Source of the DNA: an uncultured Chloroflexia bacterium | GTDB taxonomy: Bacteria; Chloroflexota; Anaerolineae; B4-G1; SLSP01 | Assembly (NCBI GenBank): GCA_963751345.1 | Contig: CAVVUS010000044.1 | Span: 1-64,000, forward strand | Direction of reading: 5' to 3' | Length of the DNA stretch: 64,000 nucleotides | Shown: positions 53,281-57,008 of the stretch, piece after piece | How positions within the stretch are numbered: the stretch's first letter is position 1 | Layout: each line of letters starts with the position of its first letter | Notes under the pieces: generated by a model | Databases searched by the model: none | The model's input: only the letters and a program-made list of their open reading frames with translations | What the model was told of the DNA's origin: nothing | Position numbers and translations under genes: made by a program

Positions 53281-54769
53281 TCATCCAATGACAGCGTTGA
53301 GGCGCCGGAGGGCAGCCTCGCGCCCGATCGCCTCGAGTGTCTCATAGAGTGATGGCGTAGCTTGGCGCCCTGAGATGGCAATCCGTAGCGCCATGTAGAG
53401 CTCCCCGCGCTTCCATCCGAGAGCCTGGACCTGGGCATCGAGCACGGTCGCGAGGCCCTCCGAAGTCCATTCGTCAGCATGCAACCTTGCGAGTGCCCCG
53501 GCGGCCGTGGCAAGCGCTCTCTGCAGCACCGTCCACGTATGACGCCGTGTGAAGCGATTCTGGCCCAGTAACTCCAGACAGCCTCTCAGGGTCCGGGTCA
53601 TAGAAGAAGAAGGAGAGCAGGTCGGGTGCTTCGTTGAGCGTCTTCATGCGTTCTCGGACCAACGCCACGATACTTTCCGTGCGCTCCGTCTCCCGGGCGG
53701 ACCGGTCCATCACCGAGATAGGCTCTGCAGCACTAACGAGCGGCAGGACTCGCCGCGTCAGATCGGGTACCGGGAGATGTCGGATATAGTATCCGTTCAT
53801 CCACAGGAGCTTGTCCCGGTCAAAGATGGCATTGGACGGACTGCAGCGGCCCAGCGAGAACGACGCCAGCAAGTCGTCAAGGGACAGAATCTCCCGGTCT
53901 GTGCCCGGACTCCAGCCGCTGAGCGCGAGGTGGTTGAGCATAGCCTCCGGCAGATATCCCATCTCCTGGAATTCCCCGATGTAGACGGCGCCGGTGCGCT
54001 TGCTGATTTTCGACCGATCGGGGTTGAGCAACAGGCCGACGTGGGCGAAGGCCGGCGGATCGAAGCCCAGTGCTTCGTAGATCTGCAACTGGGGAAACGT
54101 GTTATTGAGATGCTCAGCCCCGCGGATGACGTGCGATATCTCCATCAGATGCTCATCAATGACTGTTGCGAAGTGATAGGTCGGCATCTTATCGGATTTC
54201 ACTATCACGGGATCGCCGATCAGCGCCGCGTCCTGCTCGACGCGGCCTTGCACGAGGTCCTCCAGCACCATAGGCTTGGGCGTGAGTCGCAGCCGCAGAA
54301 CGTTCGGCCGGCCTGCTCGCAAGCGAGTCTGCACTTCGGAGGATGTGAGCGACGCGCAGCGTCCGTCATACCTCGGCGGGTGGCCCTCGGCCAGGGCGGC
54401 CCCGCGCTGAGCTGCGAGCTCGTCCGGCGTGCAGAAACAGCGGTAGGCCCGCCCGCTGTCGAGGAGCCGCTGCGCATGTTCACTGTACAACTCCAACCTC
54501 TCCGACTGCCGGTAGGGGCCGTAAGGTCCGCCGATGTCCGGCCCCTCGTCCCACTGGAGTCCTAACCACTGCAGCCCTTCCAGGATGCCCTGCTCAGATC
54601 GAGCGGTGGACCGCCGGCGGTCGGTGTCGTCGATCCTGAGGATGAACCGTCCCTGGTGCTGCCGTGCGAAGAGCAGATTGTACAGGGCGCTTCGCGCTGT
54701 GCCTACGTGGCAGTGCCCCGTTGGACTCGGCGCGATTCGGACGCGAATCGGGCTGGTTGGACTGGTCAT
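53281..54769 (-). CDS. gltX: Glutamate--tRNA ligase (possibly a second, tRNA-Gln-related paralog); frameshift near 53580
   Basis: RVRIAPSPTGHCHVG, LRIDDTD, WDEGP, YRQSER, YRCFC, PTYHFA, HVIRGAEH, KISKR. Anticodon domain LRIAISG..TPSL..IGR..LRRL lies in ORF 53281..53601. Confidence 0.93.
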
Positions 54770-54792
54770 GGGTCTCTCCTGGTCTCTTGGGG

Positions 54793-54828
54793 GAACAAAA
54801 AACCAGCCTACTTGCGGGTAGGCTGGTT
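54793..54828 (-). terminator. Intrinsic terminator (attenuator) in the gltX leader
   Basis: Minus strand: AACCAGCCTAC-CCGCAA-GTAGGCTGGTT followed by TTTTGTTC, about 24 nt before the gltX ATG. Confidence 0.85.
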
Positions 54829-54860
54829 GGTGACTCAGGTCGTCGGTCAGCTACGAAGCG

Positions 54861-54932
54861 TCAACCGTCCCGCACGGTAGGGGGGATGGACTGCTGCTCA
54901 CGCTGCTGCCGGCCGACCAATGGGTGGATCAT
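54861..54932 (-). CDS. Putative leaderless attenuator leader peptide MIHPLVGRQQREQQSIPPTVRDG
   Basis: 24 codons including CAG CAG CGT GAG CAG CAG. ATG is 6 nt after the -10. The 3' end is complementary to the terminator 5' arm and loop. Confidence 0.75.
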   Translation of the reverse strand: MIHPLVGRQQREQQSIPPTVRDG

Positions 54933-54938
54933 ATTCGC

Positions 54939-54966
54939 ATCGTACAGTGGATGGCCTTATTGTCAA
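54939..54966 (-). promoter_or_regulatory. Sigma70 promoter of the gltX leader
   Basis: TTGACA (54966-54961), 16 bp, TACGAT (54944-54939). Confidence 0.75.
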
Positions 54967-55131
54967 ATGGTGCCGTCCGCCACCCTCGATGGCAGACGGC
55001 CGAGGAGGGGAGGTCATCGTGAGTAGCCATCGCACGGACGATTGTGGTTCACGCGCCCCGGGCGTACAATCTGCCAACGTCGTGCCCAGCCATACCTCTG
55101 GCGGCTGGGGACCTCAGCAAGGAGACATCGC

Positions 55132-55497
55132 ATGAACCCACCAACTTTCTCAGGGTGGCACTATCGATACCTCATCATCGCGCTGGAGCAGCGGGACCCG
55201 CCGGCGCCGTGGGGCATCCACACGAACCTCGCGTTCAACGATGTTCCCGCCTGCAACTGCCCGGCGACCTTCCATAGTGGCCTCGATGTGCACGGACGTG
55301 AACTCGGCGGGTTCTTCAATACCGACGCGACGCGGACGATCGACGCGATGGTCCCGCCCATCTCGCCGGCGACGTGGCTCACCACACCGAACGGTGCGCC
55401 GATGCTGCGCGAGGCGATTGGTGCGGCGGCCCTCTTCGAAGGCGAGATGAGCCATCACGTCCACTTGCCCCTGGCGTTGGGATTGGGGGCGGCGTGA
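55132..55497 (+). CDS. Small protein ending in an LPLxL-type tail; possibly a remnant of a secreted protein
   Basis: AAGGAG RBS; ends HHVHLPLALGLGAA; stop overlaps the xylB GTG (GTGA). Confidence 0.5.
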   Translation: MNPPTFSGWHYRYLIIALEQRDPPAPWGIHTNLAFNDVPACNCPATFHSGLDVHGRELGGFFNTDATRTIDAMVPPISPATWLTTPNGAPMLREAIGAAALFEGEMSHHVHLPLALGLGAA

Positions 55498-57008
55498 GGA
55501 CCTCGCCCCTGCTCGTCGGGATTGACGTTGGCACCTCCAGCACCAGGAGCATCGTGGTGACGCCGGACGGCGACGTGCTGGGCTTGGCCGCCCGCGAAAC
55601 GCCGGTCGATACGCCCCGGCCCGGCTGGGCCGAGCAGGACGCGGACGTGTGGGTCGAGACCGCGCTGTCGACGACGCGCGCCGCAATGGCTGCGGCGGAC
55701 GTCGTCCCGGAGGCCGTGCATGCTATCGGCCTATCGGGCCAGATGCATGGCACCGTATGTGTGGGCGAGTCGGGGCGACCGCTGCGCCCTGCTGTGATCT
55801 GGGCCGACCAGAGGACGGTGCAGCAGGTCTCAGAGATCCGCGCGACGCTCGGCGCGGATCAGCTGGCGGCGTGGACGGGGAATCCACTGGCGACCGGCTT
55901 TATGCTGCCGACGTGGGTCTGGCTGCGCGAGCGGGAGCCGGACGTTCTGGCAGCCACGCGTTGGCTGATGCTCCCCAAGGATTACGTCCGCTATCGTCTG
56001 ACCGGCGAACCGGGCACCGAACCGAGTGATGCTTCCTCGACCTCGCTCTTCAATCCCGCAGAACGTCGATGGAGCGAGCCGCTGCTGGCGGCGCTTGATC
56101 TGCCGGACGGGTGTCTGCCGCCCGTCCATCTCTCCACGGCTGTCGCCGGCGGCCTGTTGCCCGATATGGCCGAGGCCGCGGGGCTGCGGCCGGGCACCCC
56201 GGTGATCTATGGTGGGAGCGACCAGGCGATGCAGGCGTTCGGGAATGGCGTGGTCTCGCCGGGCGTGGTCTCGTCCACCATCGGCACGGGAGGGCAACTC
56301 TTTGCGCCGACGGATCGGCCCGTGGTCGACGCGCCTCGGCTGCGGATGCACAGCTTCTGTCACGTCCTGCCCGACCTCTGGCACGTCGAGACCGCTATGC
56401 TTTCGGCAGGGCTATCGCTACGTTGGCTGAGGGATCAGGTGCTGGGTGTGGCCTCCTACGACGAGATCGTGGACGAGGCGCAAGGTGTGCAGCCGGGGGC
56501 GGATGGCCTCCTCTTCCAGCCCTACCTCGCCGGCGAACGCACGCCACACATGGATCCGCGCGCCAGAGGCAGTTTCGTCGGGTTGACGCGACGGCACACA
56601 CGCGCGCACCTAGCGCGGGCCGTGATGGAGGGCGTTGTCTTCGGCATGCGGCAGGGGCTCGACGTGATGCTGTCGTTGGGCGTGCCCGTGGACCGGATCG
56701 TGGCCTCTGGGGGCGCGACACGGCATCCGCTGTGGCTACAGTTGCAGGCCGACATCTACGACCGGCCTATTCACCGCACCGCCTCAGGGGAGGCCGCGGC
56801 GATGGGCGCCGCACTGCTGGCGGGCGTGGGTGTGGGCCTGTTCGCAGATGCACAGACTGCCATTCGCAGTGCCGTCCGCTGGCACGAGGGTGTCGTCCTG
56901 CCCGATCCGGGTCGTGCGAATCTCTATCAGCGTCACTACCAGCTCTACTGCGACCTATATCCTGCATTGGCGTCGACTGATTGGTCGCTGGGGACAACGG
57001 CTCAGTGA
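55494..57008 (+). CDS. xylB: Xylulokinase (FGGY family)
   Basis: GIDVGTSSTR, GLSGQMHG, IWADQR, LPKDYVRYRLTG, TIGTGG, PYLAGERTPH, ASGG. Confidence 0.92.
   Translation: MRTSPLLVGIDVGTSSTRSIVVTPDGDVLGLAARETPVDTPRPGWAEQDADVWVETALSTTRAAMAAADVVPEAVHAIGLSGQMHGTVCVGESGRPLRPAVIWADQRTVQQVSEIRATLGADQLAAWTGNPLATGFMLPTWVWLREREPDVLAATRWLMLPKDYVRYRLTGEPGTEPSDASSTSLFNPAERRWSEPLLAALDLPDGCLPPVHLSTAVAGGLLPDMAEAAGLRPGTPVIYGGSDQAMQAFGNGVVSPGVVSSTIGTGGQLFAPTDRPVVDAPRLRMHSFCHVLPDLWHVETAMLSAGLSLRWLRDQVLGVASYDEIVDEAQGVQPGADGLLFQPYLAGERTPHMDPRARGSFVGLTRRHTRAHLARAVMEGVVFGMRQGLDVMLSLGVPVDRIVASGGATRHPLWLQLQADIYDRPIHRTASGEAAAMGAALLAGVGVGLFADAQTAIRSAVRWHEGVVLPDPGRANLYQRHYQLYCDLYPALASTDWSLGTTAQ

Follow-up and report, generated by a model that had tools for sequence, protein, structure and literature searches.

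A putative leader-peptide attenuator with glutamine codons ahead of an accessory glutamyl-tRNA synthetase gene in Chloroflexota

Described leader-peptide attenuators sense tryptophan (Trp), histidine, phenylalanine, leucine, threonine, isoleucine/valine, and proline (mgtL). Those of the trp, his, and pheST (pheM) operons of Escherichia coli combine an upstream open reading frame (uORF) bearing a run of regulatory codons with a protector, an antiterminator, and a terminator, and the same combination can be read ahead of gltX2, a gene for glutamyl-tRNA synthetase (GluRS), on the minus strand of the 64,000-nucleotide stretch analyzed here (hereafter the window; positions 1 to 64,000 of contig CAVVUS010000044.1 in assembly GCA_963751345.1, from an uncultured Chloroflexia bacterium). 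Most likely, this leader is a ribosome-mediated transcription attenuator of the trp/his/pheST type that controls gltX2, which would make it an attenuator of known type with a new amino acid specificity, glutamine (Gln), placed ahead of an accessory GluRS. A full-text search of the literature found no paper on a Gln-codon leader peptide, on an attenuator of gltX or gatCAB, or on leader-peptide attenuation in Chloroflexota.

Set beside the three E. coli operons, the form of the leader found in the genus of the window also has its stop codon overlapping the antiterminator strand, and pheST is likewise a synthetase operon. Unlike them, the gltX2 leader would sense Gln and some glutamate (Glu), belongs to a Chloroflexota host, has an accessory paralogue as its target, and probably lies on a leaderless mRNA; in other genera, moreover, the uORFs are 35 to 77 codons long, and the 5′ strand of the antiterminator (region 2) is situated well upstream of the stop codon. 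The auxiliary, indolmycin-resistant trpRS1 of Streptomyces has a Trp-codon attenuator and is similar in being an auxiliary synthetase induced when its cognate charged tRNA falls, but the codons that gltX2 would sense (Gln) are other than the substrate of its enzyme (Glu), and there is no sign of an antibiotic-resistant enzyme. T-box leaders, too, are sensors of tRNA charging that choose between terminator and antiterminator ahead of synthetase genes; in contrast, the gltX2 leader matches no T-box model and would sense charging through the translating ribosome rather than by binding tRNA directly. In bacilli, hisS paralogues and hisZ are preceded by histidine leader peptides (PMC2965389), and these are alike in placing a duplicated synthetase under a leader peptide within a T-box-dominated lineage, although amino acid and phylum differ and there is no sequence relation.

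A second GluRS (GluRS2) is known from Helicobacter pylori and Thermotoga maritima (PDB accession numbers 3akz and 3al0), where, as in the present case, it accompanies GluRS1 and GatCAB; unlike those enzymes, that of the window falls in a separate Chloroflexota clade with Bacillota sisters and has a presumed specificity. One study (PMC3927822) reports GluRS2 alongside glutaminyl-tRNA synthetase (GlnRS) in some proteobacteria and states that a sequence marker such as Arg358 in Thermus cannot be carried over from one phylum to another; Chloroflexi are mentioned 0 times in it.

Architecture and conservation of the leader

Read on the minus strand, the leader begins with a sigma-70-type promoter (54966 to 54939), composed of TTGACA at 54966-54961, a 16-nucleotide (nt) spacer, and TACGAT at 54944-54939, which matches 10 of 12 consensus positions in a pattern scan. 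The uORF occupies 54932 to 54861, its 23 codons reading MIHPLVGRQQREQQSIPPTVRDG before the stop, with the ATG at 54932, about 6 to 7 nt past the −10 element, and the UGA at 54863-54861; the mRNA is probably leaderless. Within the uORF, a regulatory run at 54908-54891 (CAG CAG CGT GAG CAG CAG, or QQREQQ) contains four Gln codons and one Glu codon. The intrinsic terminator (54828 to 54794) consists of a 5′ arm at 54828-54818, the loop CCGCAA at 54817-54812, a 3′ arm at 54811-54801, and a T run to 54794; according to the pattern scan, its stem (54828-54801) has 11 pairs, 6 of them G-C, followed by TTTTTTGTT, and its fold has an energy of −21.2 kcal/mol. A gap of 28 nt, holding a Shine-Dalgarno-like AGGAGAG (54780-54774), then leads from the T tract to the ATG of gltX2 at 54769, and the gene itself extends to 53281. 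Every coordinate given in the initial annotation of this stretch for the promoter, ATG, CAG run, terminator, and pairing strands is right, and its core claim of a Gln-codon leader-peptide attenuator ahead of a GluRS gene is supported by conservation, stop spacing, and alternative folds.

Within 4 kb, there are 2 promoter-like sites versus 0.4 expected from shuffles and 2 terminator-like sites versus 1.2 expected, with the leader terminator far above the scan threshold. We also scanned the whole genome (5.4 Mb) for ORFs of 12 to 90 codons that contain at least 4 of one non-common residue per 8 codons and end 35 to 80 nt ahead of a hairpin and T run. The gltX2 uORF is the sole Gln-enriched sequence among the seven matches and, from a reading of the peptides, also the sole short ORF that stands by itself, whereas the remaining matches resemble the 3′ ends of longer genes; the scan is insensitive, in that a leader ahead of aspS (see below) fell under its threshold. 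Upstream of gltX1 and glnS in the source genome (G000), no unit of uORF plus terminator was seen.

To place the leader in context, we compared 11 Chloroflexota GluRS2 loci with 60 to 100% identity to residues 1 to 389 of the window protein. Nine of them, from different families, carry a Gln/Glu-rich uORF and a strong terminator (−18.6 to −29.8 kcal/mol) ahead of gltX2, such that the orthologous leaders do possess the conserved uORF on which the initial annotation had staked its claim. Across these nine leaders, the runs comprise 4 to 11 Gln and 1 to 3 Glu codons, with synonymous variation between CAA and CAG and between GAA and GAG. Examples are the uORFs of two related genomes, G002 (MIHPLIDQQRREQQSMPSILRDG) and G004 ((L)MRSTVVFEQEQQPIPRNPRDG), and the portions ...QIQVQQEQQQQQQQRESLARAAIPGPGRASP from locus L038 and ...AQAQLQSEQSEQQQQQQSIRAARRSLEAGFR from locus L120; four Gln codons are kept in both the window and G002, at shifted positions. 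The uORFs vary in length from 21 to 77 residues, five of them having 60 to 77.

The spacing of the signals around the uORF is kept as well. A TTGACA-16/17-TAnnnT site precedes the uORF in eight of the nine leaders (the G002 promoter being the same as that of the window), and in all eight of these promoter-bearing leaders the first in-frame start is either 0 nt (window and G002) or 25 to 29 nt past the predicted start of transcription. The stop codon of the Gln frame falls 21 to 34 nt ahead of the terminator 5′ arm and 51 to 63 nt ahead of the T tract in all nine leaders, whereas the two remaining frames have their first stops dispersed between −100 and +76 nt with respect to that arm. Downstream, a gap of 16 to 48 nt separates the T tract from the aligned gltX2 start in eight leaders, as does one of 81 nt in the ninth (L039), and the gap contains a Shine-Dalgarno sequence. 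Judged from its length alone, the gap itself being unscanned, it appears to leave too little room for a −35/−10 promoter in those eight leaders, and gltX2 would therefore depend on readthrough.

Two further features were observed in the long leaders. The uORFs of L038, L120, L121, and L123 have a hydrophobic, Cys-containing stretch ahead of the Gln run (AGVFACP, AGVFACR, AAVCPI, and AGIPACP), and this shared N-terminal stretch may have been inherited, as a feature of either the peptide or the RNA. In addition, genome G247 has a further TTGACA-18-TATAAT site with a hairpin and T run within about 40 nt (GGGCGCTCAAGCGCCCTTTTT; L120:430-560), which resembles a separate, very short unit of transcription ahead of the promoter of the leader.

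The intergenic region of the window is divergent, with a plus-strand ORF that starts at an ATG at 55132 behind its own AAGGAGA. We ruled out that the hairpin is the terminator of this neighboring gene, because the gene is divergent and the T run lies 3′ of the hairpin on the minus strand only. The divergent ORF (121 codons, without a family match) is followed on the plus strand by an FGGY-family carbohydrate kinase, together spanning 55132 to 57008, and the listed ORF of the kinase overlaps the 121-codon ORF. In a permissive Rfam scan of 54500 to 55300, none of the five matches came close to its gathering score (best E = 1.4), and with only such chance-level matches, readings of the leader as a T-box, a glutamine riboswitch, another riboswitch, or a small RNA were ruled out.

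Alternative structures of the leader RNA

Under the proposed attenuator, transcription would start from the TTGACA-16-TACGAT promoter, and the uORF would be translated at once. With Gln-tRNA(Gln), and less so Glu-tRNA(Glu), in plentiful supply, the ribosome would reach the stop codon that overlaps the antiterminator strand, or, in the long leaders of other genera, the protector would instead re-form behind the ribosome; by either route, the terminator hairpin would form and transcription would stop ahead of gltX2. When charged tRNA is scarce, the ribosome would stall on the CAG/GAG run and occupy the 5′ strand of the protector, and the freed UGCGGG..GGUUG would pair with the terminator 5′ arm and loop ahead of the synthesis of the 3′ arm, permitting readthrough into gltX2. 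What computation shows of this scheme is its components, the degree to which they are conserved, and the alternative ways in which they can pair; translation of the uORF and a response of readthrough to tRNA charging are what we infer.

The predicted protector hairpin (54918 to 54838) pairs the Gln-codon strand (54918-54882) with 54873-54838, a strand that includes both the antiterminator strand and the region past the stop codon. It is the minimum-energy fold of the ribosome-free window RNA (z = −2.66), in which the terminator stands apart. The protector had initially been described as an ACCGU/ACGGU hairpin but is not only that, as the longer predicted hairpin pairs the Gln codons themselves with the post-stop region. 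Similarly, an RNAalifold consensus of the six long leaders has a hairpin enclosing the Gln run and the terminator, with compensatory changes at 12 of 29 pairs.

The predicted antiterminator joins region 2 (54874 to 54862), that is, UGCGGG at 54874-54869, AC, and GGUUG at 54866-54862, to region 3 (54825 to 54813), made up of CAGCC at 54825-54821 and CCCGCA at 54818-54813, within the 5′ arm and loop of the terminator. The duplex (−19.3 kcal/mol, with a 2x2 internal loop and one U-G pair) is equaled by 3 of 500 shuffles. Of the two pairings first assigned to this structure, UGCGGG/CCCGCA stands, but GGUUG/CAACC does not, the fold giving GGUUG/CAGCC. In the genus form, region 2 overlaps the UGA (GGUUGA), and it is this overlap through which a terminating ribosome would cover the antiterminator strand, as had been suggested.

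Stalled-state folds covered the RNA between the edge of a ribosome halted on the last Gln codon and the 3′ limit of the terminator loop, without the 3′ arm; ending them before the 3′ arm is a modeling choice that was adopted after full-length folds. In these folds, region 2, lying upstream, pairs with 6 to 14 bases of the 5′ arm in all nine leaders, versus 0 to 7 arm bases pairing upstream when the ribosome is placed at the stop codon plus 15 nt. For the window, the minimum-energy fold of RNA still without its 3′ arm is the antiterminator in its shifted GGUUG register, in agreement with the earlier proposal that a stalled ribosome would free the antiterminator strand. In eight of the nine leaders, the duplex that region 2 forms with the 5′ arm (plus loop) has an energy matched by 0 to 34 of 500 shuffles.

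Genus-type and long-type terminators are unrelated in sequence, and region 2 fits the terminator of its own type: genus-type region 2 gives −15.3 to −19.5 with genus-type arms versus −6.3 to −15.6 with long-type arms, and long-type region 2 gives −14.8 to −28.0 with long-type arms versus −7.9 to −18.6 with genus-type arms. Within region 2, GCGGGACGGTTGA is invariant across the three genus leaders, and although the G004 stem is built from other bases, it retains both of the sequences with which the invariant GCGGGACGGUUGA pairs, CAGCC and CCCGC. The sequence AUCCCUGG, conserved after the Gln run, reads Ile-Pro in some leaders and (Arg)-Ser-Leu in others and, because it is read in two different frames, appears to be kept as RNA, as expected of region 2. 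In the six long leaders, 88.1% of antiterminator cells are paired, versus 33 to 58% with slid partners.

Points against the attenuator and rival explanations

Several observations weigh against this interpretation. When the 3′ arm is included and the ribosome footprint masked, the terminator persists in eight of nine stalled states, and only L123 flips to the antiterminator; the switch, if it operates, must therefore be kinetic and co-transcriptional. The number of sequestered 5′-arm bases is ordinary in most leaders (0 to 115 of 200 shuffles reach it), and the duplex of L119 is at chance level (equaled by 211 of 500 shuffles). As for the covarying helices that the initial annotation anticipated, they are present in the consensus of protector and terminator but scarcely in the antiterminator, which in the six long leaders is conserved without covarying (1 of 15 pairs changed on both sides) and whose alignment values are reached by 393 of 500 shuffles, the structure having been derived from one of the sequences. 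At the window itself, the leaderless uORF starts without a Shine-Dalgarno sequence from a start of transcription that is predicted only, and open frames are frequent in G+C-rich DNA and hence weak proof alone. The genomes that bear clade loci are metagenome bins or mostly multicontig drafts, and gltX2 is frame-shifted in the G000 assembly. Finally, the leader is absent from two of the 11 clade members (L118 and L122) and from both Bacillota sisters (L040 and L041), in all of which gltX2 lies directly behind a long same-strand ORF. Because L118 and L122 are nested within the clade, loss or relocation of the leader would be the simpler history for these two, depending on the root.

The initial annotation placed a gltX behind the leader, and this is indeed a GluRS gene, but it is the second copy in the genome, and a one-base shift near 53586 interrupts its frame. 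Its first frame (ORF 54769 to 53474) matches the bacterial gltX model at 436 bits (435.2 in the genome-wide search) over profile positions 2 to 374 only, and the remainder of the anticodon-binding domain is in another frame (ORF 53601 to 53281); relative to the intact G002 orthologue (495 residues), one extra base disrupts the frame at about 53585-53586. We read the break as probably an assembly indel rather than decay, because gatB of the same genome (contig C10, 223253 to 224686, outside the window) matches its model as four consecutive pieces in different frames and because one 249-nt contig from another sample (run X2) is without the letter at 53586, noting that six other letters of this contig differ and that its depth is about 4. 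Indel errors thus seem to be common in the G000 assembly. Among sequencing runs, none of RNA was found to contain the stretch, and contigs from four DNA runs extend over parts of gltX2 only, none of them over 54722-55150. The orthologues in G002 and G004 are intact, with open frames of 522 and 521 codons.

Of the rival explanations, the one that survives best, albeit as an improbable one, is a translation-independent RNA switch that binds a metabolite, a protein, or tRNA and in which the Gln codons are a by-product of CAG/CUG pairing. The Gln run does form one strand of a conserved hairpin, region 2 is conserved as RNA, and translation of the uORF is presumptive. Nevertheless, departures from CAG are mostly CAA, GAA, and GAG, a pattern that follows Gln and Glu codon by codon; an in-frame stop keeps its fixed distance from the terminator in the Gln frame only; the start codon is found 0 or 25 to 29 nt past the predicted start of transcription wherever a promoter was recognized; and no Rfam model, including those of T-boxes and the glutamine riboswitch, gives a match (best E = 1.4). 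Moreover, the sister leader, ahead of aspS-gatAB, contains a run of Asn/Gln codons whose sequence is quite unlike that of the gltX2 run.

Less probable still is an independent small-protein gene, encoding 21 to 77 residues with a Gln-rich middle, whose transcript ends at the hairpin while gltX2 is expressed otherwise. Such a gene would explain why five leaders encode 60 to 77 residues with common N-terminal features (AGVFAC or AAVCP) and why promoter and terminator flank the ORF as they would an ordinary small gene. However, the 16- to 48-nt gap between the T tract and gltX2 in eight of nine leaders (unscanned, as noted) seems too short for the separate promoter, and the association with gltX2 is maintained across families. 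The peptide (22 to 77 residues) is also poorly kept outside the Gln/Glu run: the 12 base changes between the window and G002 are mostly nonsynonymous, and the best-kept stretch past the run is read in two frames. Equally hard to credit is a chance arrangement or relic, with parts devoid of a regulatory role and gltX2 a decaying pseudogene, for although the gene is frame-shifted in the assembly and a copy exists in only 3 of 71 family genomes, the arrangement is kept in 9 of 11 clade loci from different families, the G002 and G004 orthologues are open over their 522 and 521 codons, indels look like a property of the assembly given the four frame pieces of gatB in the same bin, and the contig from the other sample is without the extra base.

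The accessory synthetase, a companion leader, and routes to charged glutamine tRNA

Of the 71 genomes of the family, 3 (G000, G002, and G004) carry GluRS2 orthologues that exceed 70% identity, and a sample of 401 genomes of the class adds G136, G178, G215, G247, and G431 at 60 to 69% identity, the order of G215 being represented by 5 genomes only; a second class sample (371 genomes) returned the same six matches as the first and none new. A scan of genome contigs recovered two metagenome-assembled genomes of Chloroflexota/Anaerolineales (L038 and L039; 64 to 65%), the only Chloroflexota above 60% in that scan, and two of Bacillota (L040 and L041) at 58%, and a metagenome scan recovered one locus above 60% (L123, at 65%). 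In a midpoint-rooted FastTree phylogeny of 114 GluRS fragments, from which metagenome loci and short matches were excluded, the ten Chloroflexota GluRS2 sequences form one clade (support of 0.993) with the two Bacillota sequences as sisters (0.999), and the GluRS1 of G000 itself falls outside the GluRS2 clade. Relatives of solved structure do not settle the specificity of GluRS2: the best of them is T. maritima GluRS1 (396.5 bits), followed by several GluRS and then by T. maritima GluRS2 (332.7 bits).

The gene content of G000 (49 contigs, 93% complete) makes the window copy an accessory second GluRS, because the genome contains a full gltX1 (contig C22, 530.7 bits) and a full glnS (contig C30, 741.8 bits), and on the same grounds the indirect route to Gln-tRNA(Gln) would not be strictly required. 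Also present are asnS (430.9 bits), an intact gatA (574.9 bits), and gatB in its four frame pieces, along with tRNA-Gln (CUG and UUG) and tRNA-Glu (CUC and UUC). The further gltX copy and the gatCAB genes that the initial annotation had proposed to look for are thereby found, as a full gltX, gatA, and gatB, but its implicit assumption of a need for the indirect pathway in this organism fails, and the classical setting of GluRS2, a genome without GlnRS, does not apply to G000. Elsewhere in the clade, all seven other genomes searched have two gltX, and gatB was found in all five in which it was sought; glnS is present in six of the eight genomes searched (G000 included), the searches of G178 (84% complete) and G431 (a single contig) having returned none. 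In G431, the GluRS2 gene is without the leader, the genomes being too few for a test.

Another candidate attenuator with a leader peptide was observed outside the window (contig C10 of G000, 219240 to 219611; L211:1130-1501), upstream of an aspS-like gene that is followed by gatA and gatB. Its parts are TTGACA-17-TATAAT, AGGAGG, a uORF reading MLLLNQYQQINDNDNPGVRLWEGRA up to its stop, and two hairpins with T runs. The DNA of this leader was found in 14 of 15 other genomes of the genus that were searched, and in each of the 14 either the C-terminal part of the uORF, ending in NPGVRLWE(G/D)R, or the run rich in asparagine (Asn) is readable; examples of Asn/Gln-rich uORFs in the genus are ...NRNQNNNNNPGVRLWEGRS and ...IQQLNQQQNNNPGVRLWEDRS. 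From a reading of the sequences, GCGUGCGCCUGUGG in the conserved uORF end nearly complements the terminator arm CCACGGGCGCACGC. The aspS leader appears to follow the same design as that of gltX2, would fit the two products of GatCAB, and lends support to the reading of the gltX2 leader; together they suggest that ribosome-sensing attenuators have, in this lineage, the role that T-boxes play in Firmicutes.

As for the attenuator ahead of gltX2, a shortage of charged Gln tRNA most likely turns the gene on. From the bias of the leader codons toward Gln, along with the genome content, we infer that GluRS2 would relieve this shortage by attaching Glu to tRNA(Gln) for use by GatCAB, whether or not it charges tRNA(Glu) as well. 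A broader and more tentative view, which may prove right but which we would not yet favor over its negation, is that Anaerolineae with a GlnRS retain the indirect route, an ancient one, as an inducible back-up governed by two attenuators: the Gln(/Glu) leader would turn on the tRNA(Gln)-charging GluRS2, and the Asn/Gln leader would turn on aspS-gatCAB. Under a shortage of glutamine or nitrogen, or when GlnRS is inhibited, tRNA(Gln) would then be charged by way of Glu-tRNA(Gln) and GatCAB, and a leaderless GluRS2 gene, such as that of G431, in which no glnS was found, would be expected if the route is constitutive there.

If these interpretations hold, regulatory codons would predict, from sequence alone, which tRNA an uncharacterized GluRS paralogue serves. 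Moreover, the direct route to Gln-tRNA(Gln), through GlnRS, and the indirect one, through GluRS2 and GatCAB, would be able to coexist under conditional control, which would bear on the long-standing question of why some bacteria retain both.

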